Source: Bacillota bacterium (GTDB taxonomy: Bacteria; Bacillota; JAAYKD01). From it: DNA of 64,000 bases. Below are positions 35,110-51,671 of this stretch, in pieces. The stretch is taken from NCBI GenBank assembly GCA_963666425.2, contig OY762825.2, positions 1,120,001 to 1,184,000 of the forward strand, in the 5' to 3' direction. Position 1 is the stretch's first letter; each line of letters starts with the position of its first letter. The notes below the pieces were generated by a model. The model was not told the origin of the DNA and did no database searches. It saw nothing but the letters and a program-made list of their open reading frames with translations. The position numbers and the translations under genes are program-made.

Positions 35110-35163
35110 AAAAATTAAAAAAATCACGGCTCTGCTGATTCCATACAGAAATCAGCAGAGCCG
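35110..35163 (-). terminator. Terminator of the hsd operon
   Basis: Perfect stem CGGCTCTGCTGATT / AATCAGCAGAGCCG followed on the minus strand by T-tracts. Confidence 0.85.
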
Positions 35164-35232
35164 CTTGGCACATATGTTTAGGATTGGTTCGGTGATTTAA
35201 GGAAAGGGAGATTATCCAAGGTCATTTCACTT

Positions 35233-38200
35233 TTATGCTGCTACTGCATTTGCGTTGACTCGCTCAATCGCTTTTCGAATTCCTGCCCAAACAGAAAGAT
35301 TTTTAAACACTTCAACAATGCTGCCGCGATCCGTAAAAGGTGATTCCTGCAAAACAGACAGATCTTTCATCAAACCATTATGCACAATGTATTCAACGAT
35401 CTGGTTGACGAAATAGATTTGTCGGCTGTCCAGATTTGCGGTATTGAGATATTCCGCAAATGCTGTCTTGGCTGCATTGCTATCGAGACCGACGATCTCA
35501 CGTACAAATTCTCCCAAGGGCTTTTGACCACATTCCGTTTCATAATCCTGCTTTGTGCCCACCTCGCTCCAGAGGATTTTTTCCAAAGCTTTGACATCTT
35601 CTTTTGTAAGCGGAACATTGGTTTTTAGTTTGGCAATGGCAGCATTGTCCTGATGTTTCCGGATATAAAATTCTGCTTTTGCTTTGTAATTCCTGAGATC
35701 ATCATTCTCCAAATCGGATTCATGCCAGTCTGTTGATAAAATCTCATCCGCAAAATTGGTGGTGTATCTCATATCGCTGTGCGGAATATACTTCATCAGC
35801 CCGCGCAGATTTTCACGAATATGTTCAAACTCATTGATCCCGGCATTTTCCAGATAATCTGTATGCAAAATTTGATGAATCAACTCTGCCTGTGCCCTAA
35901 TCTCGGGAATATTTGCTACACCAGCGACACCGTTGATCCGTTTGAGAAGGTCGCTACGAGCACGAGTGTAATTTTTACCGACCAGATAAGCAAGCTCAAT
36001 TCCATAGATCAGCGCGTCGAAGCGGACGGCGCTTGCTTCATCTTCGTCCGGCAGGATCAACGGGGCCATTTCATTACCAACGATCAAGGTATCTTCATAG
36101 CAAAATGCATCATAGCTTTTTGGTTCGGAATACTGCTCCACAGACTTCAAATGCTGCTTGATCGCGAAATTTTCACGGTTCAATTCCTGTGCCTTGCGTA
36201 CCATGTCGTCTACTAAGCTTTTGCGGAAGGGAATCAATTCTTTCGTCTGGAAAGCAATGTCCTGCAGTTTGAAAACAATCTGCATTTTCAATTGATAAAT
36301 TGCACCCTGCAACGCCAGCATATTGGCTGTAGGCCGCCCTTTATTCATCCGGAAGAATTCAAAGTTGCCGCAGAAATCAAAAATATAAAACTTCTGCTTA
36401 TCTTCTCCATCCAAAAGACCCGGACAGAGACGGGTTCCGCGGCCGATCATCTGCCAGAACTTTGCCTTGCTCATCACCTTTTTGAAAAATACGAGGTTCA
36501 GAATCTCCGGAATATCAATACCGGTATCCAGCATATCTACCGAAATAGCGATCTGCGGCAGTTTGTTCGGCTCGGAAAATTCGTCGATAGCACTCTGTGC
36601 ATACGTCATGTAGTTATCGATAACCTTGGCATAACCGAACAAATTTGGGTACTCCTTACCGAAAATCTCATAAATCTTTTCGGCATGCAGGTGATTCTTG
36701 GCAAAAATGATCGTCTTGCCCAGCTTTTCCCCGTAGTTGATCTTGATTCCATCTGTCATCAGAACCTGTATTACCTGCCGGATAGTATCCTCATTGAAAA
36801 TCCACTCATTCAGGGCTGAGGAAGCAATCGATTCCGGCACTTCGCCGTTTTCATCCTCAAAAGTGTCCTCATAAATTGCCTTGTCTTGCTCGGAAAGATC
36901 ATCGTAGACGATACCCTGCTCGATGAATTTCAATTTCGTCTCCACAGACAGAAAATCCACCAGATAGCCATCGCTGACCGCCTGTGCCAACTCGTAGCCG
37001 TAGGTTGGCACACCATTTTCCAACTCGAATATTTCATAGGTGTTTTTTTCGATATCAATTTTTGGTGTTGCAGTAAGGCCCACCAACGGTGCATCAAAAT
37101 AAGTGAAAATATCACGGTATTTGTTATAGATGGAGCGGTGTGCCTCGTCACAGATCACCAGATCGAAGTGCCCGCAGGTGAAAAGCTTGCCCTCGTCATC
37201 CTTTACAGAGTCAATACAGTTCATCATCGTCTGATAAGTAGAAAAAACGCAGTGGGCGCTGTAATTGTCTTTTTCCTCGCAGAGATTGGTGAGAGACAGA
37301 TCGGGAAGGTAATTGACGAAATTGCGTTTGGCTTGTGTGACCAACGAATTGCGGTCGGCGAGAAACAGGATGTTTTTAATCCAGCCATGCTGCAGCAGCA
37401 CGTCGCACAAAGCAATGACCGTTCTCGTCTTGCCGGAACCGGTGGCCATCACCAGCAGCGCCTTGCGGCGATTGCGTGCGTCAAAGCTGTCGCAAATGGC
37501 CTTGATGGCTGCTTCCTCGTAATAGCGCCCGGCGATGTTCTTATTGACCATTACATACGCGAGACGAGTCCGCAATGACCGTAAATTGAACAATTTTTCC
37601 AGATCACGCTTGGAGTAGATACATGCAACTTTTCGCTCCGGATATAGGTTGTCAACAATACGCGTTTCAAAACCGTTGGTGAGAAAGACAATCGGGCGAC
37701 GGTGATATTTCTGTTCTAATAAATCGGCATAAAGTTTTGCTTGCTGGCGGCCCTTGGCAACATCCACGCACGTACGTTTTGCTTCCACCACCGCAAGCGG
37801 TCTTCCATCGTCTCCATAGAGCACATAATCGGCATAACCTATTTCAGACCAGTTTGGCATGCCGGGCAATTCAACTTCGCTCAGCCAATCATGGCCTTCC
37901 GTCCAACCCGCATCCGCCAGCATGGCATCGATATAGATTTTGCGTGTCTTATATTCTGAAAGCTCCAGCGGCTTGGGCACATAAGTTTGCTGCTGTTCCT
38001 CCCGACGGGCTGTCAGCTCTTCTTTCAGCGCTTTGTTTTCGGCGATGAGTGCTTTCAGATCAACCTCCGGTACTTCAAGAAGAGGAGGTGTAACCATGGC
38101 CGGTTCCGTCTGCAGAAGTGCGGCATCAAACTTACCTTCCACGTAATCTTTTCCATAGCAGTAAGCGACAAAATCAAGGAAAACATACAGGTTTTCCAGG

Positions 38201-38529
38201 CACAGGGCTGCTTGCTCAAGTGTTACCTTTTTACCGCTGTGGACGGCGTTATTGCCCATTTTGCGGATGAAATCCATGCGCCGCCAAATATCGATGCCCA
38301 CAACATCATGGAATTCTTCCGCATTCATCAGATTGACCAACGTATCTTGATACGGCATGACAAGGCTGCCGTCCACGGAATACATCCATTTGACGGCAAA
38401 CTCCATCGCGCGGCGGCAGTTGATAATACTTGCCTCCACATCAAGTTGCAGGATTCGTTCTGCCGACACCGCTACATCCGCAAAGGAGGCAAACTGCGGG
38501 TCGGAGTGAAGAAAATCAAAGTTGGTCAT
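35233..38529 (-). CDS. hsdR: Type I restriction enzyme R subunit (EcoAI/EcoEI-like, N-terminal DUF4145-like domain)
   Basis: Nuclease motif ADYVL...VVEAKR, Walker A MATGSGKT, DEAHRS, LTATP, MLDTGID, QMIGRGTR. Confidence 0.95.
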   Translation of the reverse strand: MTNFDFLHSDPQFASFADVAVSAERILQLDVEASIINCRRAMEFAVKWMYSVDGSLVMPYQDTLVNLMNAEEFHDVVGIDIWRRMDFIRKMGNNAVHSGKKVTLEQAALCLENLYVFLDFVAYCYGKDYVEGKFDAALLQTEPAMVTPPLLEVPEVDLKALIAENKALKEELTARREEQQQTYVPKPLELSEYKTRKIYIDAMLADAGWTEGHDWLSEVELPGMPNWSEIGYADYVLYGDDGRPLAVVEAKRTCVDVAKGRQQAKLYADLLEQKYHRRPIVFLTNGFETRIVDNLYPERKVACIYSKRDLEKLFNLRSLRTRLAYVMVNKNIAGRYYEEAAIKAICDSFDARNRRKALLVMATGSGKTRTVIALCDVLLQHGWIKNILFLADRNSLVTQAKRNFVNYLPDLSLTNLCEEKDNYSAHCVFSTYQTMMNCIDSVKDDEGKLFTCGHFDLVICDEAHRSIYNKYRDIFTYFDAPLVGLTATPKIDIEKNTYEIFELENGVPTYGYELAQAVSDGYLVDFLSVETKLKFIEQGIVYDDLSEQDKAIYEDTFEDENGEVPESIASSALNEWIFNEDTIRQVIQVLMTDGIKINYGEKLGKTIIFAKNHLHAEKIYEIFGKEYPNLFGYAKVIDNYMTYAQSAIDEFSEPNKLPQIAISVDMLDTGIDIPEILNLVFFKKVMSKAKFWQMIGRGTRLCPGLLDGEDKQKFYIFDFCGNFEFFRMNKGRPTANMLALQGAIYQLKMQIVFKLQDIAFQTKELIPFRKSLVDDMVRKAQELNRENFAIKQHLKSVEQYSEPKSYDAFCYEDTLIVGNEMAPLILPDEDEASAVRFDALIYGIELAYLVGKNYTRARSDLLKRINGVAGVANIPEIRAQAELIHQILHTDYLENAGINEFEHIRENLRGLMKYIPHSDMRYTTNFADEILSTDWHESDLENDDLRNYKAKAEFYIRKHQDNAAIAKLKTNVPLTKEDVKALEKILWSEVGTKQDYETECGQKPLGEFVREIVGLDSNAAKTAFAEYLNTANLDSRQIYFVNQIVEYIVHNGLMKDLSVLQESPFTDRGSIVEVFKNLSVWAGIRKAIERVNANAVAA

Positions 38530-38541
38530 GACAAAGTTACC

Positions 38542-39072
38542 TCAATCTTTCAAGAAAAAATCAGGATTATCGTTAAATGCAGTTATTAACCAAGGCTGAG
38601 CATTAAATCCGACAATCATTTCCTTGGTGAATGGATCGATATCCGTTATTTGTCCTGGTTGATATATATAACCTATCTGAGTTAAATATAATGCATTACC
38701 ATCATTCATATCCAGACGAATTTGTTTATGATCATTCAATAAAAGCTGCCTTATGTATTCTTTTTGTTTATTGTCTAGAGATTTGAACATCTTCTTAAAT
38801 GATCTTATGGTTCTACACCGCTTTAGCCGTTTTGAACCAGAAGAAATGAGAATTTGGAGAACAATAATAAGCGTGAGAAATACACAAAACAAAAACAACA
38901 CCGAAATACACAACATCCAGTTTTCCGGTATATTGGCAAGATGCAACCTTTGGAGCATATCTTCAGGCATGAACAGTATAAAGCTTGACACGATACCAAT
39001 AGAAACAACAACTGGACTTATTTTTTTCAAATGTTCAAATAACTTATCAAGATGAACATCTATTTTCAACAC
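38542..39072 (-). CDS. Superinfection exclusion protein B (SieB)-like 2-TM membrane protein
   Basis: Two TM helices (VVSIGIVSSFILFMPE; WMLCISVLFLFCVFLTL), then a basic helix and SLDNKQKEYIRQL...LDMNDGNALYLTQIGYIY, which resembles the SieB family. AT-rich. Confidence 0.6.
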   Translation of the reverse strand: MLKIDVHLDKLFEHLKKISPVVVSIGIVSSFILFMPEDMLQRLHLANIPENWMLCISVLFLFCVFLTLIIVLQILISSGSKRLKRCRTIRSFKKMFKSLDNKQKEYIRQLLLNDHKQIRLDMNDGNALYLTQIGYIYQPGQITDIDPFTKEMIVGFNAQPWLITAFNDNPDFFLKD

Positions 39073-39092
39073 AATTGCCTCCCCAAAACATT

Positions 39093-39155
39093 CTAAATCT
39101 GTGATTTCAGTATCATGCGAACTTCAGAATGGATTAAAAAATCAAAATTGGTCAT
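39093..39155 (-). pseudogene. Duplicated 5' stub of hsdR (20-codon mini-ORF MTNFDFLIHSE...)
   Basis: ATGACCAATTTTGATTTT versus the hsdR start ATGACCAACTTTGATTTT; it has its own AAGGTG RBS. Confidence 0.7.
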
Positions 39156-39173
39156 GTCAGCACCTTGTCAGTA

Positions 39174-39908
39174 TTAGAAAATGGTTTTTATTACTTGTTC
39201 CGTTCCGCTAATTAACTCTTCAACCTCATCCTTATTGGGTTCTCGTTCTTTGCTGTGATCGCACAGATTTCGAATATCTCCCAATCTTTGTACTCTTCTC
39301 CATTCAACTGTATCGTATACATTATCTTTTAATGCATCATTGAAATCAGTTATTGTTGGATTCTTTTTTTTAGTAACAATCTCTCTAGTATGACACACTC
39401 CAGAAAAATGCTTTTCTAATACTACTCCACATATTGCACCAGCAGCTCTAAGAAAGCCCATTTTGAGCAGATGCTTTGCCGTTTCAATTTCCGAGTCGAA
39501 AATATCAGCTTGGAGTACTACTTGTATACTGTAAATCTTGCTATCGAATTTATCTAAACATGCTTGCAGCATTTTCACCTGTCGAAGCACATTAAGTGCT
39601 GCTGTCCACGGTCCATATAAGTCCCTTGTATGATGGATTCCCCGTAATGCATCTGAAATACTGTATGTCCCAAAATTAATCTCTTTCCGTTTAGGATTAG
39701 AATAAAGCAGTATAAAATCTTGAGTACGGTCTGGAATTAGCTGTTTTATAAGAACCAGTGCTTTTGTATACCATTCTTCATAATTCAAAATAAAAAAGCC
39801 AAAATCCTTACACTTAGATTTATCAATTCTTTCAAGCGAATAGTAAAGCTTATCTCCATGATCAATTAACTTCTGGATTTCATTTTTTAGCTCGGTATAT
39901 TCTTTCAT
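39174..39908 (-). CDS. Hypothetical protein with a C-terminal HEPN-like domain
   Basis: AAGAICGVVLEKHF helix and Rx4H motif RNLCDH; AT-rich; embedded in the hsd operon. Confidence 0.65.
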   Translation of the reverse strand: MKEYTELKNEIQKLIDHGDKLYYSLERIDKSKCKDFGFFILNYEEWYTKALVLIKQLIPDRTQDFILLYSNPKRKEINFGTYSISDALRGIHHTRDLYGPWTAALNVLRQVKMLQACLDKFDSKIYSIQVVLQADIFDSEIETAKHLLKMGFLRAAGAICGVVLEKHFSGVCHTREIVTKKKNPTITDFNDALKDNVYDTVEWRRVQRLGDIRNLCDHSKEREPNKDEVEELISGTEQVIKTIF

Positions 39909-39919
39909 GCGTTCTCACC

Positions 39920-41083
39920 TCACCCAAAATACTGTTGCATGAGTGCTTTTTTTAGTGTCTCAAGCTTTTCCAGGCTCATTTGAATTTCAAGTTTTGATTT
40001 GTCGATTTGTTTGACGAAGTCAGAAAATTGCTCTTGTAGTCCCAACGGAGGTAGAATAATCATGTAGTCTTCAATTTGTGCGCTGCTTACATTTGGTTGA
40101 AGCGAATTACCACTCATTCTATCTACATAATCCTTAAAGTCATCAGTTCTACACAGAACTTCAAGAAATATTGGCGTAATGCCTCTTTTCATTTGAAATC
40201 TTCCAACTCGTTGATTCAATAAGCATGGCAAATCTCTGCTTGAAACTTTTGCAATTTTCACTGAATTAAGTGACTTAATTATAGGACGAGTCATTGCCAT
40301 AACTAAATCGCCATCTTGCAATGCAAATTCTTGATACTTTGTGAGATATTCCTGCGGTACAGAATTGACAACGTCCCAATTAATAAAATCCTTGTTCACA
40401 TTGCCAATTTGAACGAGTGGAACACCTTCGTCAACAAAAGCCTTACTCATAAAAGCATATCCGCCTTGCAGTCTTGCATAATCACCCAACTGAACTACAG
40501 GATAATCAAATTGATTATTATTTACCGTACCGAAAATCTCGACAAACCGGGATTTGATGAGGTCTTCCAGTTTAGCAAGCTGTTGCTTGCGGAGGGAAAT
40601 GAGATTGATTATTTTTCTAAATGCAGCAGCGATTCTCTTCTGTTCATCCAAAGGTGGAAGTGGTATTTCGATGTTTTCAACAATACCTTTTGATATTTCT
40701 TTGAATGTGGCTCCGCGTCCTAATGAGTTAAGACAATCCGTGTTCCCTTTCAGGAAAAAATACAAATACTCATTAAAAACACGATCTGAGCAAATTAGGT
40801 TTTTGAAGCCTTGATTGCAGCACATTTTGCATCCTGCTATAGCCGTTTTTCCAATAGGAGCGCGGGAAGATAAAATCACGGTTCCCGCAGGAAATGGGTG
40901 TAGCCCTGTTTTTCTCTTTCCTTCTTCTGTAATATGGCGTGAAGAGTCAAAAATGTAAAACGAATCATCTGATAATTCAGCGGGCGTAATCCATTTTATA
41001 TCTCCATCCCAGTATTCATTCATGTTCGTTTTTGGAGTAGAGCCAGATATGACCTTACATACATCCCCCAATTTCGCCATCAT
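39920..41083 (-). CDS. hsdS: Type I R-M specificity subunit
   Basis: Two TRDs with conserved repeats LGDV..SGSTPK / IPLPPLDEQKRI and LGDY / LPPLGLQEQF; SSRAPIG. Confidence 0.93.
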   Translation of the reverse strand: MMAKLGDVCKVISGSTPKTNMNEYWDGDIKWITPAELSDDSFYIFDSSRHITEEGKRKTGLHPFPAGTVILSSRAPIGKTAIAGCKMCCNQGFKNLICSDRVFNEYLYFFLKGNTDCLNSLGRGATFKEISKGIVENIEIPLPPLDEQKRIAAAFRKIINLISLRKQQLAKLEDLIKSRFVEIFGTVNNNQFDYPVVQLGDYARLQGGYAFMSKAFVDEGVPLVQIGNVNKDFINWDVVNSVPQEYLTKYQEFALQDGDLVMAMTRPIIKSLNSVKIAKVSSRDLPCLLNQRVGRFQMKRGITPIFLEVLCRTDDFKDYVDRMSGNSLQPNVSSAQIEDYMIILPPLGLQEQFSDFVKQIDKSKLEIQMSLEKLETLKKALMQQYFG

Positions 41084-42579
41084 ACCATCTCCTTCAGTTC
41101 TGCCAAGCTCTTAATAATTTCCTTTTCGATCTCATGCAGGTCTGCCATGATTTCCTTCGTTGAGAGGTACTCCGTCTTAACATAGTCCGTCTTTTTATAT
41201 TTGTTAATGGAAAGGTCATAATCGTTCCCGACGATTTCAGCTTTCGGCACCAGAAAGGATTTTTCTGTTCTGGCACGGTCGGCTTCCTCATCCCTGTTTT
41301 TAAAACGCTCAATAATGTCGGGAATGTCGTTGTTATCCGGTGTAAGTGTCCGTTTGTCATCTAGGCTCATACCATCAGCAGTCATATTATAGAACCACAC
41401 GTTATCCGTGCCGCCATGGCCGGTCTTCGTAAATACTAAAATTCCGGTGGAAACGCCGGCATAAGGCTTGAACACGCCGGAAGGCATGGAAATGACTGCT
41501 TCCAGTCGATTACCCTCAATTAGCTCCTTACGGATAGCCTTATGCGCTGTGGAGGATCCAAACAGCACGCCGTCTGGTACGATGCAGGCACAGCGACCGC
41601 CCACCTTCAACATGCGCAAGAAAAGCGCCAAAAATAGCAGCTCGGTTTTCTTTGTCTTGCAAACTTTCAGAAGGTCAGTGGAAACCGTATCGGAATCCAA
41701 GCTGCCCTTGAACGGTGGATTGGCGAGGATCAGAGAATATCGTTCTCTATCTGGGTTCTGATCGGACAGGCTGTCGCGGTACTCTATAAACGGATTATCT
41801 ACGCCATGCGTCATCATGTTCATGGCGCCGATACGAAGCATCGTCCGATCCATGTCGTAGCCATGAAACATGTGGTTCATGTAGTGGCCTTTTTTTTGCT
41901 TGTCGAAGAAAATTTCTTCTTTGTAATGCTCTTTTAGGTATTCAGCAGCGGTCACCAGGAAGCCAGACGTGCCACAGGCGGGATCGCAGATTACATCGTC
42001 CGGTCGCGGTGCAAGCAGTTCCACCATCATACGGATAACGTGACGTGGTGTGCGGAACTGACCGTTCATACCGGAGGTGGAAATTTTAGAAAGCAGATAT
42101 TCGTAGACATCGCCACGCACATCCGATTCTTTCATGGCGGACATTTGGCGATAGATTTCATCCAGAGCGTCCACAATCTTGGAGAGCATCAGCGGTGTTG
42201 GGATTTTGAAAATAGCGTCATCCATATATTTGGAATAGGCGCTTTCTTTGTTCCCATGCAGATTTTTAATGAATGGGAACACTAGTTCTTGTACGACCGA
42301 GTACATTTTACCTGCCGGAAAATCGTGAAACACCGACCATTTGAGCTGGTTGCCGTCTACCCGGCGATCGCCAATCTGCACCTCATTGGCAAAAATGCTT
42401 TCAAAAGAAAGCCCCAGCATAGCACTCTCCTTAGCGCGCAGGTTGTCTGTGTCATCCAAGTCACGGATGAACATGAGATAGGTCATCTGCTCCACTACAT
42501 CCAACGGATTGGTCAGCCCACCGGTCCAGAACATTTCCCAAAGGCTATCGATTCGATTTTTCAGTTCGCCTGTTATCAT
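41080..42579 (-). CDS. hsdM: Type I R-M m6A methyltransferase subunit
   Basis: GQFRTPRH, DPACGTSGFL (motif I), NPPF (motif IV), VPDGVLFG. Confidence 0.96.
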   Translation of the reverse strand: MITGELKNRIDSLWEMFWTGGLTNPLDVVEQMTYLMFIRDLDDTDNLRAKESAMLGLSFESIFANEVQIGDRRVDGNQLKWSVFHDFPAGKMYSVVQELVFPFIKNLHGNKESAYSKYMDDAIFKIPTPLMLSKIVDALDEIYRQMSAMKESDVRGDVYEYLLSKISTSGMNGQFRTPRHVIRMMVELLAPRPDDVICDPACGTSGFLVTAAEYLKEHYKEEIFFDKQKKGHYMNHMFHGYDMDRTMLRIGAMNMMTHGVDNPFIEYRDSLSDQNPDRERYSLILANPPFKGSLDSDTVSTDLLKVCKTKKTELLFLALFLRMLKVGGRCACIVPDGVLFGSSTAHKAIRKELIEGNRLEAVISMPSGVFKPYAGVSTGILVFTKTGHGGTDNVWFYNMTADGMSLDDKRTLTPDNNDIPDIIERFKNRDEEADRARTEKSFLVPKAEIVGNDYDLSINKYKKTDYVKTEYLSTKEIMADLHEIEKEIIKSLAELKEMV

Positions 42580-43638
42580 TTATTCTTTCTCCCTATTCCA
42601 TGTATAGGAGGCGTAGCGCCCCCCACTGAGCTTAATGATTTCATCGCTTTTCAGCAGGTTATTCAGGGCCCGTTGGATGGTAACCTGACTGATGTCCGGG
42701 CATTTTTGCATGATTTCTGTTTTGGTGATTTTGCCAAGCGTCCCTTTAATGATCTCCCGAACACGATCCGCTTTGGAAAGATTACTGGTTGTCAGAAGCT
42801 GCATACGGGAAGAAAATTCCCGATATGCCGCAACAATCACGCCTAGCATATATCGCACAAATGGCATATAGTCATTTTTTTCTTCGTGCCAGCCTTCGGA
42901 ACTTTGCTGCAGAGTTTCATAATAGGTTTCTCGTGACATCTCGATCAGCTTTTCAATACTGATATATTTGCTAACGTTATAGCCACCGCGATAGAGTAAA
43001 AGCAGTGTCAGAAGACGACTCATGCGGCCGTTGCCATCGTTGAAGGGGTGAATGCAAAGAAAATCCAGAATAAACACTGGAATGAGCAGTAACGGATCGT
43101 ATTCGGCATTTTTGCTGGCTTCTTCCAGCGCAACGCAGAGCTGTTCCATCGCCTCTGTCGTCTCCCACGCTGGCACTGGTTGGAACCTGATGAACTTATT
43201 CCCTTGTGCATCTTCTTCCGCAATCACATTATCGGCGCTTTTATAAGAACCGCCGGTGCTTTTTCCGCTGAATTTATAGAGATCGCGGTGCAGCTGCAGG
43301 ATCATGGACGGTTTTGGTGGGATGAAGTCATGGCTTTCGTGAATCGTGGCAAGCACATCGCGGTAGCCGGCAATTTCCTCTTCGTTTCTGGTTTTCGGCA
43401 TTGTTTTATCACTGATAATTTTCTTCAATCGTTCGTTGGAAGTCGAGATGCCTTCGATTTTATTGGACGCCTCGGCACTCTGAATTTTCGCGACCTCAAC
43501 GAGTTGCGTCAATGTGTCGCTTTGAGCTTCAATAAATTGATTCTGCTCTCCCTTGAATTCATGGATTTGCACCAGAAGCGCAACGGTTTCTGGAGTAAGC
43601 AAAGCATGATATATCTTGTCATAATTGTATTTCCGCAT
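42580..43638 (-). CDS. Fic-domain protein (AMPylase) with C-terminal wHTH
   Basis: Canonical HPFNDGNGRMSR; N-terminal inhibitory motif SNKIEG; its stop codon abuts the hsdM ATG. Confidence 0.92.
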   Translation of the reverse strand: MRKYNYDKIYHALLTPETVALLVQIHEFKGEQNQFIEAQSDTLTQLVEVAKIQSAEASNKIEGISTSNERLKKIISDKTMPKTRNEEEIAGYRDVLATIHESHDFIPPKPSMILQLHRDLYKFSGKSTGGSYKSADNVIAEEDAQGNKFIRFQPVPAWETTEAMEQLCVALEEASKNAEYDPLLLIPVFILDFLCIHPFNDGNGRMSRLLTLLLLYRGGYNVSKYISIEKLIEMSRETYYETLQQSSEGWHEEKNDYMPFVRYMLGVIVAAYREFSSRMQLLTTSNLSKADRVREIIKGTLGKITKTEIMQKCPDISQVTIQRALNNLLKSDEIIKLSGGRYASYTWNREKE

Positions 43639-44311: not shown

Positions 44312-47300
44312 CTATTTAAAAACTAATTTTATGTCATCCAAATTGTAGTATTCAATCCCACCTTTTCTAGCTCTAATACTCGGCGGAATCAGTTCTATCA
44401 ACTCCTGTCTTGTATGTACGCCCGGTAAAACATAATATGTTCTATCGTAACCTAAAAATAAAATACTCCAACCTTCTCTAACCCCCTGAACATATGTATC
44501 ATCTTTCCCAATGTAATCTTTGAGTTTGAGTTCGTCATCTTCCGTAATATCTCTGGGTGCAACATATTCAAACAGAGCATAGTCTATATATTCTTCTCTC
44601 GCTAATCTTATATAGGTGTTCAATTCAAATAAGCTGAAGTAATTCTGAATCTTTTCAACACGTCCAATCAAGCAAAGCGGTTTTCCAAAACGCTCCTTAT
44701 TATGTGATGATATACCGATTTTCGGGTTCACAAGAGCTGGCTCAATAATGCCCATTCCATATAACCCGTTTCCGATTTTTGAGATTATTTTTATCCGTCT
44801 CTCGTCTAGAGAATAATTATCTTCCCTTTCTCGCTCTTTTATTTTACTAAATAGCCTCTCAGGCACTACCGGCCACAAACTAGTAACCAAATCATATTGC
44901 TCAAAACGCCCTTCCCATTTATCTGCCTTTAATACATATTGAACATGACGCAATAACGTTCTATCTTCTTTTAGCGCAACCGATGGCGGGAAAAATAGAT
45001 TTGACTTAATATTTATGCTTTCGTCCAAAACTCCAATTGCTTCAGCTGCGAACGCTTTTCCAAAAAATAATTGTCTTGCTACATCATCCAGCTGCCTAAT
45101 ATCAATATTTTTAAATGTTACATCGGGGAGTCTTACTAACTCACTTAGAGAGTTTGTTTTTTGATCGATTAAATTCACTTTGTCTAGCTTCATTGAGCCG
45201 TACTCTGTAGCTGATAATTGCTGAAGTATATCACCAGAAAATTCCTCAAACTCGTATAATAGAATGTTGATCGTCAGTTGAGCCTCGGCTGAATCGGCTC
45301 CAATCTTTTCCTCTCTTAAATATGCCACTACAACTTCTACGACTTTAATTATTAGTTTATCGACAAGTTTTTTTAGGATCTCGGTAAGGTCTTCCGAAAA
45401 ACCTACTATATTGTTTCGGTCAACAGACAATACGGGCCTTTTTTCTCCAATGAAATTCAATATGACACTAGAGTTCTGAGACAAACTATACCCTAGTAGT
45501 GCATATTTTTTTAAATGCACGGAATTTTCATTTACGACAACCCCGTCGACTAAAATTGTTAGTTGACTAGTTTTCCATAAATACCTAGAAAAACTAAAAA
45601 CATAACGATTTAGTACGGGAATGCCCTTTTGAGGCAAACAAATAAATGTGTGTAGCTGAACACCGTCAAATCCTACACAAATTGGTATATCTTTGATAAA
45701 ATTGCGGCATGTTATAACATCTTTATATTGATTTTCGTTATCATTTTCTAAATTGTATCGCCCAAAAGCTGTTGCAAATGCAGCGACATTTGTATTTGGA
45801 TATTTCCTAAAATCAAAAATTTCATTAAATGGAATAATCGGGTGTGATTTATCGTTTTCGTCGTATACGCAGACTTCAATATCGGGGTCAGGAATGCCTA
45901 TTTGCTTGTTCACTTTCCAGAAAAGGCTGCTTTCAAATTCTTTATAGCTTGATTTATCAAATGTTTCATCGTACCTGCTGTTATTCCCTGCAAAAATAAA
46001 ATAATACAAATCCTTTGGAATGATACAATTGATTATTTCAGAAGTCTTTCCGTTAAGGAAAATTTTTACTAGTGTACCATGTTCGCCTATGCGCTCATTA
46101 TCAAGTTCGTTGATAGGTATATGATAAAATCGCTCATTAGCCCCTTCTATTACAAAGGACAATGGTATAATAGCATTTTCATAGTGCTTTGTAGTTATTT
46201 CAAGTGCATCACCTAACATAAAGCATGAAAGAATACCTATTCCGAATTGGGATGTTGGGTTTACCGCATTTGACCAATTGGCATTTTTCCTAATAAAATC
46301 GCGAGATTTATAGTATGAATTGCCAATGTGCAAAAGGTGATTTTTTACAATATCCATCGTCATGCCTGTTCCATTATCTAAGCAATAAATATATGTTCGA
46401 CCATTGCTGTCGGTTGACAATCCAAAGGATATTTTATAATTACTAAATACACTTCTTGTTATGTCGATTGCTTTCATACATTTGCATGCATCGAGCGAGT
46501 TTTGGTAAAGTTCTCGCAAACAAAGGTATTCATCTTTATAAAGTTGTGCACCCGCCAAAAGACCGAGAATTTTAGATTGCTCCAAGGTAAACTTTGCATC
46601 GTTTTCAGGTATAAATATTGATGTATCAGCATCAATTCCTGTTCTATCCGCAGCTATCGCAATTTTAATATCATAGTTCTCCCGATTAGGTATATCATCA
46701 TATTCTAATCGCTGTAGAAATTTAAAGTATAGCGCAATCTCATCGTCAACAGAGTCCAAATAATCCTGTAAAAAATAGTAAGTATCCGGCGATGAACAAT
46801 ATGCTTTAAATTTTATGGTTGTCTTGGAATTGGTATTGCTAAATTCATAATGTGTTTCCTCGAATTTTGACTTCCAATGCTTATAACTTACTGGGTCAGT
46901 AATTTTCTTTTCGGCAAACAGCGACATGGGTGCTCTATCCGAAGAAAAATGAATAATATCGCCAAGTCTTAACATAATTGCTACAAATTGAACATTCACC
47001 TTACCAAGAGAATCTATTTCATAGTCAAAATCTAACTTTTTGACATCAACGGCTTCATCCCCATGCGCTTTACAAACTTTGGCTAAGACGTTCAGATACT
47101 TATCTGCAGTAGATTTTTTTAGCAACGCTCTGAATCTTTTACGCATATTGCCAATAAATTCAACAATACGTTTATTATGTGTTGTTCTAATGAAGTCACA
47201 CCTAATTAGATTGCTATAATTGAGATAATCATAGCTATCTAATTTTTTGTTTCTTAATTGATCTGAAAACCCGTTTCGAAATTCTTCATAAGACCGTACA

Positions 47301-47812
47301 CGTTTCGCTAAATCAAGTTGTAGTTCGGCTTCGTTCTCGGGAGCAAAAATAAAACTCTCCACATTGCTGTATTTCACATATATATAGCGTTTATTCTCAT
47401 CGATAATTTTCTCTATTTCAATTAAAGACTGAACCGGCTTAAAATCGTTCTTAATGCAAGGTTTCACATCCCGATTATAATGTTCCTCACATCCTTCAAA
47501 AGCTTTTAATAAATCGTATTCCCATTTAGGGAGCGCCATTGCAGCATCATGAAAAAAGCAACTTGAATATATTAGTATAGCTTCAAGGAATGATAAATCG
47601 GCCATTTTAACTCCAAGAAGGTTTTCAATATTTTCTAAAACCTTTTCGGAGTGATTAGCGTCGTGTATATCAAAATTATTCAATTGAGCAGTTATTTGAG
47701 ATAAATGGGTTTTGCAATCTTCAATAGCGTCTTTTAATGTTGACCACAATGTAGCCTTTGCCTCATTGCCATCTATTTTCAATTTTTCTTCTATGAAATC
47801 ATCTAACTTCAT
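44312..47812 (-). CDS. Large HD-domain (HD-CE-like) + HSP90/GHKL ATPase fusion protein, putative defence/conflict protein
   Basis: HD motifs IHDANHS...FFHDAAM...LRLGDI; GHKL motifs LRELYQNSLDA, DNGTGM, SQFGIGILSCFM; long unknown C-terminal region; AT-rich. Confidence 0.8.
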   Translation of the reverse strand: MKLDDFIEEKLKIDGNEAKATLWSTLKDAIEDCKTHLSQITAQLNNFDIHDANHSEKVLENIENLLGVKMADLSFLEAILIYSSCFFHDAAMALPKWEYDLLKAFEGCEEHYNRDVKPCIKNDFKPVQSLIEIEKIIDENKRYIYVKYSNVESFIFAPENEAELQLDLAKRVRSYEEFRNGFSDQLRNKKLDSYDYLNYSNLIRCDFIRTTHNKRIVEFIGNMRKRFRALLKKSTADKYLNVLAKVCKAHGDEAVDVKKLDFDYEIDSLGKVNVQFVAIMLRLGDIIHFSSDRAPMSLFAEKKITDPVSYKHWKSKFEETHYEFSNTNSKTTIKFKAYCSSPDTYYFLQDYLDSVDDEIALYFKFLQRLEYDDIPNRENYDIKIAIAADRTGIDADTSIFIPENDAKFTLEQSKILGLLAGAQLYKDEYLCLRELYQNSLDACKCMKAIDITRSVFSNYKISFGLSTDSNGRTYIYCLDNGTGMTMDIVKNHLLHIGNSYYKSRDFIRKNANWSNAVNPTSQFGIGILSCFMLGDALEITTKHYENAIIPLSFVIEGANERFYHIPINELDNERIGEHGTLVKIFLNGKTSEIINCIIPKDLYYFIFAGNNSRYDETFDKSSYKEFESSLFWKVNKQIGIPDPDIEVCVYDENDKSHPIIPFNEIFDFRKYPNTNVAAFATAFGRYNLENDNENQYKDVITCRNFIKDIPICVGFDGVQLHTFICLPQKGIPVLNRYVFSFSRYLWKTSQLTILVDGVVVNENSVHLKKYALLGYSLSQNSSVILNFIGEKRPVLSVDRNNIVGFSEDLTEILKKLVDKLIIKVVEVVVAYLREEKIGADSAEAQLTINILLYEFEEFSGDILQQLSATEYGSMKLDKVNLIDQKTNSLSELVRLPDVTFKNIDIRQLDDVARQLFFGKAFAAEAIGVLDESINIKSNLFFPPSVALKEDRTLLRHVQYVLKADKWEGRFEQYDLVTSLWPVVPERLFSKIKEREREDNYSLDERRIKIISKIGNGLYGMGIIEPALVNPKIGISSHNKERFGKPLCLIGRVEKIQNYFSLFELNTYIRLAREEYIDYALFEYVAPRDITEDDELKLKDYIGKDDTYVQGVREGWSILFLGYDRTYYVLPGVHTRQELIELIPPSIRARKGGIEYYNLDDIKLVFK

Positions 47813-49285: not shown

Positions 49286-49440
49286 ATTTCCTTTCCAGAT
49301 TTACGAATTTGCGTAGCATGTATATGCTAATCTAAATGTTGACCAGTTTAGCACCGAATGCTAAACGAAAAGTTGACCACCTTGAGCCCCTTTCCTGTTA
49401 TGATGTATTTGCGAGAAACATCAAGCAGGAGGAAAGGAAA

Positions 49441-50910
49441 ATGTACAAGATGGTCGATAAAGAGTATATCAGAAAACTGTATTACATGGAAGACTGGCCC
49501 ATCAGGAAAATCAGTCGTCAGCTTCAGATATCACGTCAAGCCATCCGAAAAATGATAGAGGATACGGAAAAGCCAAAGTATGAAATTAAGAAAGAGCGGC
49601 CGGCACCGGTCATGGATCAGTATTTGGAAATATTGCGGAAATGGATTGAAGAAGACGAGAAAGCTCCGAAAAAACAAAGGCATACTGCGATACGAATGTA
49701 TGAACGCTTAAGGGATGAACATAATTTTACCGGTGGCAGTTCAACCGTGAGACAGAGCGTTGCCAAATTGAAAAACAAAGTACCGGAAGTATTTATACCT
49801 TTGACGGCAGCACCGGGTGAACAGGTTCAGGTAGACTTCGGGCATGCACAAGTGGTGCTGGCCGGTCATGAACAGAAAGTAAATATCTTTTGCATGCGTT
49901 TGAAGCACAGTTCGGTACCCTTTGTTGTAGCTTTTCCAACAGAACGGCTGGAAGCCTTTTTGGAAGGACACGTTCAAGGTTTTGCTTACTTCGGTGGTGT
50001 GCCAAGAGAAGGTCTCTACGATAATGCGAAGACGCAGGTCGTGAAGATCTTAGAGGGGCCTTACCGCCAAGAACACGAGGATTTCTCAAGTTTACGCTCT
50101 CACTATTTGTTTAACAGTCTTTTTTGCCGACCGAGAAAAGGTAATGAGAAAGGAGCGGTAGAGGGTCTGGTGAAGCAAGTACGCAGCCAAGCAATGGTTC
50201 CCGTGCCGGAATGCGAAAATTTGGAAGAACTTAACGCTTTATTACTGAATTGGTGTAAGAAAGAAAAATCAAGAAACCAAGAAAAGTGGTTAGCTGAACA
50301 GGCGCAATTACGTCCTTTGCCAGTAGAACCATACTCGGCAGCAAAAATAGTGGCTGCGAAGGTGAGTTCTTACTCACTGGTGACCATTGACCGAAACCGT
50401 TACTCCGTTCCCACAGAGTTTGTAGGAGAAAACTTATTTGTTAAAGCTTATGTGAATCGCATAGAAGTTCTGCACCGTAACCATGTTATTGCGACTCACG
50501 ATCGCTGCTACGGTAGGAACCATACTTCTTTACAATTAGAGCATTATCTCAATGCCTTAGAGAAAAAACCACACGCGGTAACACATGCTACGGTGGTTCG
50601 CCAATTGCCTTTACCTTTTCAGCAGGTCAAAGAGAACATGGAGCAAGCGCACGGAACCGGCTACAAAGATTTTTTACGAGTTCTTTTGTTAACACACGAG
50701 TATCCGTTGAATGAAATAGGTGCTGCGATTACCGACCTTGGGGCTTCTCGAGCCTGCGAAGAGACCCTGAGACACTATTTACAAAGTAAACGAAACCCAT
50801 TAGAAGAACAGCGAGACCCACAAAGACAACTCCTCACCAATGGGATTCCCCTGATCACCATACAAGATACTCAACGCTATGATTTGTTGTTGCAGGGGGT
50901 GAGAGCATGA
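49441..50910 (+). CDS. istA: IS21 transposase IstA
   Basis: N-terminal HTH, QVDFG, FGGVP..YDN, EKGAVE DDE motifs; ATG 49441 follows a GGAGG/AGGA RBS. Confidence 0.93.
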   Translation: MYKMVDKEYIRKLYYMEDWPIRKISRQLQISRQAIRKMIEDTEKPKYEIKKERPAPVMDQYLEILRKWIEEDEKAPKKQRHTAIRMYERLRDEHNFTGGSSTVRQSVAKLKNKVPEVFIPLTAAPGEQVQVDFGHAQVVLAGHEQKVNIFCMRLKHSSVPFVVAFPTERLEAFLEGHVQGFAYFGGVPREGLYDNAKTQVVKILEGPYRQEHEDFSSLRSHYLFNSLFCRPRKGNEKGAVEGLVKQVRSQAMVPVPECENLEELNALLLNWCKKEKSRNQEKWLAEQAQLRPLPVEPYSAAKIVAAKVSSYSLVTIDRNRYSVPTEFVGENLFVKAYVNRIEVLHRNHVIATHDRCYGRNHTSLQLEHYLNALEKKPHAVTHATVVRQLPLPFQQVKENMEQAHGTGYKDFLRVLLLTHEYPLNEIGAAITDLGASRACEETLRHYLQSKRNPLEEQRDPQRQLLTNGIPLITIQDTQRYDLLLQGVRA

Positions 50911-51671
50911 GTCTTGATATAACCGAGGCTCAAATTGAGCTCTCTTGTAAACTTCTTCGCTTACCAGGCTTGAAACAACAGTTTCGCGCTCTGGTTCGCG
51001 AAGCAAACGAAAGGAACCTGAATTGTAGTCAATTCTTGAAACTGTGCTTAGAACAAGAAATTCACGATCGCCAGGTAAAGAAACAGCAAATTCTGCTTCG
51101 TCAGGCTAAATTCCCGGCAAAGAAGACCTTGGCGGATTTCGATTTTACGAAAATCCCGCAACTGCCAAAGAACAAAATATTAAAGCTTGCCGATTCCGAA
51201 TATGTTAAGCGTAAAGAAAATATTATTTGTATTGGCAGAGCTGGAACGGGAAAAAGTCATATTAGCATTGCCTTGGGAATGGAAGCTTTACAAAAGGGTT
51301 TTCGAGTTCGGTTCATTTCAGTGATGCAGCTTTTGCAGGAAATTCAATTGGCTGAAGCGGAATTCCGCTTACCCCGCTACTTAAAAGCATGGAACCGAGT
51401 CGATCTTGTTATTCTTGATGAACTTGGTTATCTCCCACTTGGGGAACAGGGTAAACTACTATTTCATTTTATCTCTCAACGTTACGAAACAGGAAGCTTG
51501 ATAATAACCTCTAACTTAGAGTTTTCCCGCTGGGTTGAAGTCTTGCATGACCCAGCATTAACTTCTGCCTTGCTAGACAGACTGACTCACCATTCTAATA
51601 TTATCCTTTTCGATGGAGAATCGTATCGCTTTCGCGAAAGCCTGGCTCGCCAGGCGGTGGATTTGAATTAG
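50907..51671 (+). CDS. istB: IS21 helper ATPase IstB
   Basis: GRAGTGKSH Walker A, LVILDELGY Walker B, ITSN, ALLDRLTHH, GESYR; ATGA overlap with istA. Confidence 0.95.
   Translation: MSLDITEAQIELSCKLLRLPGLKQQFRALVREANERNLNCSQFLKLCLEQEIHDRQVKKQQILLRQAKFPAKKTLADFDFTKIPQLPKNKILKLADSEYVKRKENIICIGRAGTGKSHISIALGMEALQKGFRVRFISVMQLLQEIQLAEAEFRLPRYLKAWNRVDLVILDELGYLPLGEQGKLLFHFISQRYETGSLIITSNLEFSRWVEVLHDPALTSALLDRLTHHSNIILFDGESYRFRESLARQAVDLN

Follow-up and report, generated by a model that had tools for sequence, protein, structure and literature searches.

HEPN244, the name used here for a protein of 244 amino acids (aa), is encoded within a type I restriction-modification (R-M) operon on a stretch of 64,000 nucleotides (nt) of the Bacillota bacterium contig OY762825.2, which is referred to in its entirety as the window. 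We lean towards the view that HEPN244 represents a self-contained sensor-effector RNase of the abortive-infection type, whose C-terminal HEPN nuclease domain would be controlled by its own N-terminal helical domain. An earlier note, made from the sequence of the window, had drawn attention to the same gene as encoding an ATPase-less HEPN toxin which monitors the type I complex and which might constitute an undescribed system. Its description of the gene, including the ORF (open reading frame) at 39174-39908 with its start 11 bp after hsdS, was confirmed by the ORF list, and its HEPN assignment was substantiated; the proposed monitoring of the type I complex was not, as detailed below.

The ORF is considered to be a real gene and not a chance occurrence, because 2429 database proteins match HEPN244 at E≤0.001. 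The AlphaFold (AF2) model of the protein, based on a 65-sequence alignment (predicted local distance difference test score, pLDDT, of 95.6; predicted template modeling score, pTM, of 0.81), comprises two helical domains linked by one long helix (residues 100-149), with the helices of the N-terminal half, anticipated by the earlier note, located at residues 2-30, 33-57, 59-69, and 100-149. Residues 126-244 adopt the four-helix HEPN fold, as evidenced by structural alignment (VIA-align) with 2hsb at a Z score of 14.1 and a root mean square deviation of 2.4 Å across 115 residues. Further alignments were obtained with 1ufb (Z 12.0), Csm6 (6tug, Z 11.0), the sacsin HEPN domain (3o10, Z 11.0), and HepT (5yep_B, Z 10.3), as well as with 1wol, the C-terminal domain of AbiA, and AbiV, and these HEPN alignments stand well above the background comparisons. 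Foldseek, which the earlier note had suggested as a check of the fold, ranks HEPN proteins first (target template modeling scores of 0.55 to 0.68), none of them at E≤0.001. A PDB sequence search with the protein and both profiles yielded chance-level matches only.

Both motifs on which the HEPN assignment had originally been based are present, GVVLEKH at residues 161-167 and RNLCDH at residues 213-218, and their conservation was counted in 65 diverse relatives of 35 to 58% identity. R213, C216, and E165 are invariant across these relatives, while N214, H218, G161, V162, L164, and H167 are conserved in at least 90% of them, such that the R-x4-H motif expected of a HEPN RNase, a range of R-x4-6-H with a polar residue following the arginine, is represented family-wide by R213-N214...H218. 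The case of a non-conserved RNLCDH, by which the earlier note would have been refuted, is thus excluded. This spacing differs from the R-x7-H of the DUF4145 domain in the HsdR protein of the same operon and of RAZR (R146/H154), the two examples on which a view of R-x7-H as typical of DUF4145 is based. At the level of profiles, Pfam HEPN is matched by 14 of the 65 relatives at E≤0.01 (best 2.7e-07) and Pfam DUF4145 (PF13643) by 17 (best 7.6e-06), RiboL-PSP-HEPN is matched by 5, and weak matches of relatives to Swt1 and Abi_2 were also recorded; HEPN244 itself has no DUF4145 match at E≤0.1. The family sits within the HEPN clan with DUF4145 as its nearest named family, of which HEPN244 is not a member at threshold. 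In agreement with the earlier note, no Walker motif was found, as no GxxxxGK[ST] P-loop was read in HEPN244 and no ATPase family was reported by Pfam, NCBIfam, or PADLOC.

The N-terminal domain, when folded alone, attains a pLDDT of 92.5, and it carries residues which are conserved throughout the family, namely, Y43, W46, Y47, P59, R61, F65, Y69, D86, and Q110. It is all-helical and is devoid of a Cys4 cluster, it matches no Pfam family and has no sequence relative in the PDB, and its fold matches are generic four-helix bundles only (Z≤9.2). The possibility that it represents a degenerate second HEPN domain was considered on account of a single hint, an alignment to 3jrt at Z 7.4 amid the generic bundles, and was dropped for lack of evidence, the comparison of the N-terminal and C-terminal halves by hhalign having returned a probability of 0.5%, equal to that of a column-shuffled control.

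The family to which HEPN244 belongs comprises 1682 clusters at 50% identity, of which 356 are found at E≤1e-30, and nearly all of its members measure 240 to 290 aa, with a single longer form. Neither Pfam nor PADLOC has a model dedicated to the family, NCBIfam returned nothing useful, all named members are labeled "hypothetical protein," and the nearest named Atlas clusters are DUF4145/HEPN. A profile from an alignment tighter than the 65-sequence one detected 473 relatives among 185,579 species-representative genomes, distributed across many phyla. The window genome carries one copy, and of 400 further genomes sampled within its phylum, a single one yielded a match (G088, contig C19, 4144-4737; loci L011 and L013); this match is split into two adjoining parts, covering model positions 19-168 and 204-251, and this copy may be frameshifted or degraded. 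A quick gene tree conflicts with taxonomy. A genome of the Omnitrophota and an unclassified bacterium (L040 and L042) have identical family proteins, and a cyanobacterial and a Planctomycetota copy (L059 and L051) are near neighbors in the tree; both cases point to recent horizontal transfer. A tblastn search of 50,697 phage records returned no family match, and Foldseek returned none among viral structures at E≤0.001. Plasmids carry few full-length copies, and Acinetobacter plasmid proteins annotated as DUF4145/HEPN align to the C-terminal half.

The genomic contexts of the family were assessed in 84 genome loci, the neighbors being defined by simple longest-ORF calls, and in 80 independently sampled metagenome loci, which gave the same picture and of which 20 extend 3 kb or more in either direction. 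Type I genes lie beside 10 of the 84 genome loci (L001, L002, L003, L009, L014-L017, L020, and L034), and an R-M methylase or HsdS is present near 5 of the 20 well-flanked metagenome loci; no methylase or HsdS occurs within 6 to 8 kb of the remaining 74 genome and 15 metagenome loci. No neighbor cluster is common to more than 9 of the 84 loci, the three largest being HsdM, HsdS, and HsdR. Restriction genes of other kinds were found at L022 (type ISP), L023 (MmeI-type), and L073 (ResIII together with an endonuclease domain), and the profile search grouped a helicase at L006, possibly of type III, with restriction helicases. Immediately adjacent to the family gene at the 74 loci which lack hsd genes, 113 Pfam families were recorded, each represented in at most 4 of 138 proteins, and defense and mobility markers (ResIII, AAA_21, AAA_15, a Schlafen-type helicase, a STAND NTPase, and an integrase) are mixed with housekeeping genes; individually checked neighbors include SIR2-STAND, AAA_15, TraG, and RloB. 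Relatives of 57 to 59% identity to HEPN244 adjoin type ISP R-M genes or Schlafen-type helicases, and those of 50 to 51% identity adjoin MmeI R-M genes or RloB.

Where type I genes are present, the family gene is repeatedly placed close behind hsdS. It begins 0 to 15 bp after hsdS in the window and at L002, L015, L016, L017, L034, L089, L099, and L114, and several distant metagenome relatives (46 to 49% identity) begin 8 to 60 bp after it. The hsdS-adjacent members are split between three lineages, with one clade of 10 members in Clostridia, to which HEPN244 belongs, one of 5 members in Bacteroidia, and a single member in Dehalococcoidia. Of the 15 rows that make up the clade of the window, 9 have the gene inside a type I operon. 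The hsd operons differ by clade and represent two different type I families; from a reading of N-terminal letters, HsdM and HsdR of the Bacteroidia clade are unlike those of the window. Linkage to R-M genes is, therefore, real, recurrent, and, by a rough estimate, far above that of a random gene, yet it is structured by clade and constitutes the minority state; most members are located elsewhere, with no conserved partner. Between R-M-linked and unlinked members, the conserved N-terminal residues do not differ. Given this, the limited number of loci with type I genes, the lack of a conserved neighbor, and the relatives which adjoin other genes, monitoring of the type I complex by HEPN244 is not supported.

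In the mechanism we favor, the N-terminal domain, for which we infer a sensor role, would hold the HEPN nuclease silent and respond to an infection cue, whereupon the HEPN domain would cleave RNA (tRNA, rRNA, or mRNA) in a metal-free manner, and translation would be arrested. HEPN244 would probably act as a dimer, by analogy with other HEPN RNases; the prediction of a homodimer from two copies scored 0.00 against a mark of 0.42, which is evidence neither way. The gene is presumed to travel horizontally as a single-gene module into variable defense regions, recurrently right after hsdS, and in the window it would be cotranscribed with the Fic, hsdM, hsdS, SieB-like, and hsdR genes as one layer of a multi-layer defense operon, its product working without need of the Hsd proteins. 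Such autonomy is favored over a guard function because most members have no R-M neighbors, because relatives in or near the clade of the window adjoin unrelated systems, and because the conserved residues of the N-terminal domain do not vary with context. The sporadic and mobile nature of the family (its presence in 1 of the 400 phylum genomes, the conflict between tree and taxonomy, and the local GC trough) supports this interpretation, as do the defense-related company of its members (type I, ISP, MmeI, and ResIII-type genes, the Schlafen-type helicase, RloB, SIR2-STAND, and AAA_15, along with AbiH, Abi_alpha, DUF3800, or SieB genes in the slot between hsdS and hsdR), the stand-alone architecture seen in nearly all clusters, the HEPN fold and conserved motif, the lack of an obligate partner, and the precedent of the validated monogenic HEPN proteins discussed below. 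The family is best filed as uncharacterized, among the stand-alone or R-M-embedded HEPN abortive-infection nucleases.

Several observations weigh against this interpretation. No Foldseek match of HEPN244 reaches E≤0.001, and its score against the Pfam HEPN model (PF05168) is 18.5 bits (E 0.0024), under the curated cut-off of 22. The fold of the N-terminal domain, as modeled, is too generic to point to a ligand or trigger, and RNase activity, toxicity, and phage defense are properties which we infer for every member of the family. A defense island is not universal for the family, given that some homologs are flanked by genes for AsmA, a molybdopterin oxidoreductase, cytochrome c assembly, a BCCT transporter, or threonine synthase. 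Furthermore, the R-M linkage counts are a lower bound, having been obtained with simple longest-ORF calls and with R-M profiles built from few seeds, and the tight and repeated placement 0 to 15 bp after hsdS in three lineages could mean that the gene is genuinely coupled in function to the type I enzymes there, which would not be expected of a purely autonomous protein.

The last point is the basis of a rival explanation, according to which HEPN244 would bind the type I complex or a single subunit thereof and be held inactive until a phage anti-restriction protein disables the enzyme, whereupon the freed RNase would abort infection, as PrrC does with EcoprrI but without the ATPase. The gene occupies the position of prrC between hsdS and hsdR, its close spacing to hsdS in the nine loci listed above suggests translational coupling, and the slot is occupied in three lineages and in two unrelated type I families, with type I embedding prevalent in the clade of the window. 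It is, moreover, the constant first gene after hsdS while other cargo varies, and the general hypothesis for R-M-linked HEPN genes has been published (PMC3710099) and restated in a 2025 review (PMC12707154). We nevertheless regard a guard function as unlikely in view of the majority of loci which are free of a methylase or HsdS, and of the relatives in or near the same clade which sit beside type ISP genes, a Schlafen helicase, MmeI, or RloB; these genes not being of type I, selection for the protein evidently persists in the absence of Hsd partners. The residues conserved in the N-terminal domain are, in addition, identical in linked and unlinked members though the Hsd families differ, and the slot itself is a hotspot which also holds AbiH, Abi_alpha, DUF3800, and SieB genes. 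A version of the guard hypothesis adapted to these facts would confine it to the hsdS-coupled Clostridia and Bacteroidia clades, where HEPN244 would be a minimal, ATPase-less guard whose four-helix domain docks onto an Hsd subunit, R-M-free relatives guarding other targets via the same domain. This version appears to us similarly doubtful; if true, it would place PrrC-like guard logic in a protein of 244 residues that is spread over many phyla.

Two further explanations were judged to be of lower probability. HEPN244 may be a non-catalytic or non-defense protein, either an RNA-binding or regulatory HEPN protein of the MtlR type or a stress RNase unrelated to phages, a proposal with which the flanking of certain homologs by housekeeping genes alone, the zero copies in the phage records, and the absence of a PADLOC match are consistent. 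It is rendered rather improbable by the invariance or near-invariance of the catalytic arginine, histidine, and glutamate, a motif that non-catalytic HEPN families typically lose (PMC3710099), by the sporadic and transfer-prone distribution, and by the recurrence of defense and R-M genes next to family members. A neighboring antitoxin is common for HEPN toxins, for example in HepT-MntA and RnlA-RnlB (PMC3710099), and HEPN244 might likewise be the toxin of a toxin-antitoxin (TA) pair or part of a two-gene module, partnered by the SieB-like protein, whose gene follows in the operon after 101 bp, and by a small unannotated ORF elsewhere. This is considered highly improbable, because no homolog of the SieB-like gene exists in any of the 84 genome and 80 metagenome loci, because no conserved neighbor cluster apart from HsdS is found on either immediate side (ORFs of less than 80 aa not having been systematically examined), and because no MNT-type nucleotidyltransferase is among the 25 commonest families of the 138 flanking proteins.

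With regard to published systems, the novelty claimed for HEPN244 requires qualification. Neither a PADLOC model nor a named system corresponds to it, and literature word searches returned no named system of such an architecture, although a family that is differently named or listed in a supplement could escape them. The concept of an ATPase-less HEPN protein in R-M operons acting by analogy with PrrC is not new, however, having been published in 2013, when Anantharaman et al. tied at least 16 HEPN clades to R-M systems, many of them ATPase-less, and proposed a PrrC-like action (PMC3710099). The same source lists DUF4145 genes in operons with R-M genes and describes neighborhoods of R-M, HEPN, and Doc/Fic genes, as found at the window locus. 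With the R-M-linked solo HEPN families reported there (Abi2/AbiD/AbiF, AbiU2, AbiJ solos, ApeA, DUF4145, and pEK499_p136), HEPN244 has both the concept and the type of locus in common, but it reaches none of the Pfam models for these families, and its N-terminal domain matches none of the N-terminal domains modeled in Pfam.

PrrC of EcoprrI (type Ic) shares with HEPN244 a C-terminal nuclease domain of the HEPN superfamily with an R...H motif, a gene inserted into a type I operon, in the interval that separates hsdS from hsdR, and a presumed second-line abortive role. PrrC and RloC, however, possess an N-terminal ABC-type/Rad50-like ATPase in place of the 125-residue four-helix domain of HEPN244, which is without a P-loop; PrrC has no detectable sequence relation to HEPN244, as judged from the absence of a PADLOC match, and most relatives of HEPN244 are not R-M linked. 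RAZR (PMC13017515), BxaP (PMC10799925), and Ishtar (bioRxiv 10.64898/2026.07.06.735840) are monogenic DUF4145/HEPN defense proteins with another second domain which have been validated by experiment. RAZR (PD-T7-4) resembles HEPN244 as a single gene of similar size encoding a small N-terminal domain and a C-terminal divergent HEPN domain, and is described as a phage-protein-activated, RNA-cleaving abortive-infection protein whose R and H residues are essential (PMC13017515). It is the best functional analog of HEPN244, from which it differs in having a Cys4 zinc-ribbon N-terminal domain and R-x7-H in place of the helical domain and R-x4-H, and HEPN244 has no PADLOC match. BxaP and Ishtar (DUF4145/DUF3644) are likewise HEPN proteins which stand alone and carry a further domain whose function is unknown, patchily distributed and located near defense systems (bacteriophage exclusion, BREX, in the case of BxaP); their HEPN domain is N-terminal and their second domain HEAT-like or alpha/beta, whereas HEPN244 displays the reverse order and a four-helix partner. 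HepT of the HepT-MntA system (type II/VII TA) has in common with HEPN244 the minimal HEPN fold and R-x4-H, but is encoded adjacent to an MNT antitoxin gene, of which none is conserved among the neighbors of HEPN244, and lacks the extra N-terminal domain.

The single-gene defense proteins RAZR, BxaP, and Ishtar are now being characterized one by one, and each joins the same nuclease to a different sensing domain. A large, multi-phylum family for which neither Pfam nor PADLOC has a dedicated model, and which carries a putative sensing domain of its own, is a plausible candidate for a further system of this kind. The embedded and free-standing members of the family constitute a natural experiment by which a guard of a restriction enzyme may be told apart from a rider of a cargo hotspot, a question which has stood since the 2013 proposal.

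The operon in which HEPN244 is encoded lies on the minus strand in the order Fic, hsdM, hsdS, HEPN244, SieB-like, and hsdR, with successive intergenic gaps of 0, -4, 11, 101, and 12 bp (Table 1). The 11-bp gap between hsdS and the HEPN244 gene contains a Shine-Dalgarno-like GGTGAG sequence. The AT-richness ascribed to the gene by the earlier note was verified, the GC content being 0.345 to 0.346 across positions 38500-39999 compared to 0.47 to 0.49 for hsdM and hsdR; the SieB-like gene is AT-rich as well. No terminator-like hairpin of a strength comparable to that which follows hsdR was found between hsdS and hsdR. Promoter-like sites numbered 27 compared to a shuffled expectation of 19.7 ± 4.6, which is no clear excess, and no internal promoter is, therefore, named.

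Table 1. Features of the HEPN244 operon and of the HEPN244 protein in the window
Feature	Position	Strand	Evidence
Fic/SoFic-like gene, abuts hsdM and opens the operon	42580..43638	-	Pfam Fic 5.3e-14; PADLOC SoFic 1.8e-39
hsdM, 4-bp overlap with hsdS	41080..42579	-	Pfam N6_Mtase 1.4e-63 and HsdM_N
hsdS, stop 11 bp upstream of HEPN244	39920..41083	-	Pfam Methylase_S 1.7e-46
HEPN244 gene, stop codon included	39174..39908	-	ORF call, 244 aa, ATG start
HEPN244 N-terminal four-helix domain, residues about 1-125, unannotated	39534..39908	-	Model helices, conserved residues
HEPN244 C-terminal HEPN domain, residues about 126-244	39177..39533	-	Structural alignment
G161-V-V-L-E165-K-H167, second conserved motif	39408..39428	-	Read from sequence
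R213-N-L-C-D-H218, R-x4-H catalytic motif of HEPN RNases	39255..39272	-	Read from sequence
SieB-like membrane-protein gene, 176 aa	38542..39072	-	Pfam SieB 5.2e-18, score 65.5 (cut-off 26); PHROG SieB 0.0011
hsdR with N-terminal DUF4145 and EcoEI_R_C tail	35233..38529	-	Pfam ResIII 1.9e-36, EcoEI_R_C 1.7e-19
DUF4145 (HEPN-clan) domain of HsdR, residues 22-113	38191-38466	-	Pfam 2e-13
Intrinsic-terminator-like hairpin, strong, closing the operon	35126..35164	-	17-bp stem, 9 GC pairs, T tail

The slot between hsdS and hsdR to which the earlier note had assigned the gene was correctly recognized as prrC-like and hsdS-adjacent; what had been overlooked is the SieB-like gene, which separates HEPN244 from hsdR. 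The SieB-like gene looks like a separate, independent cargo gene, and its candidacy as an obligate partner of HEPN244 was dropped, no homolog having been found in the genome and metagenome loci. In related operons, HEPN244 homologs are always first after hsdS, two loci having a small extra gene in between, and are followed by an AbiH gene (L002, L014, and L017), an Abi_alpha gene (L016), two genes of which the second encodes DUF3800 (L034), or no gene at all (L003, L015, and L020). The gap between hsdS and hsdR thus collects varied abortive-infection genes and behaves as a cargo hotspot, which may be used to find more such genes. Genes of unknown function also occur between hsdM and hsdS at L002 (5894-6856), L015 (6432-6893), and L017 (5321-5881), the products of the latter two having a similar N-terminus and none of the three matching a Pfam family, and this gap looks like a second cargo position in these operons. 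Fic homologs precede hsdM at L002, L015, and L016 also.

Two HEPN-type domains are encoded by the operon of the window, that of HEPN244 and the DUF4145 domain of HsdR, the motif of which reads R-K-M-G-N-N-A-V-H. Kinship between the two was considered and dismissed, since BLASTP returned nothing (E>6); a heterodimer of HEPN244 with HsdR through these domains is a further conceivable arrangement. The DUF4145 domain appears to be absent from HsdR in the other two type I lineages, the HsdR protein of L009 having no match and that of L034 having been judged from its N-terminal letters only.

The operon is placed in a variable stretch of approximately 18 kb of the window genome, which is bordered by MarR/PNPOx-like genes (about 34.1-35.0 kb) and by guaA/groEL (53.7-57.1 kb). 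Directly upstream of the operon, a gene at 44312-47812 (minus strand; GC content of about 0.34) encodes a 1166-aa protein with HD-CE (8.6e-39) and GHKL-type ATPase (HATPase_c_3) domains; PADLOC gives no match for this gene, which is possibly a further defense gene of the same island. An IS21-type element, consisting of a transposase with a Mu-transposase C-terminal domain and IstB (4.4e-74), is located at the edge of the variable region (49336-51671, plus strand). The arrangement from hsdM to hsdR is kept whole in a related strain, at about 96% identity.

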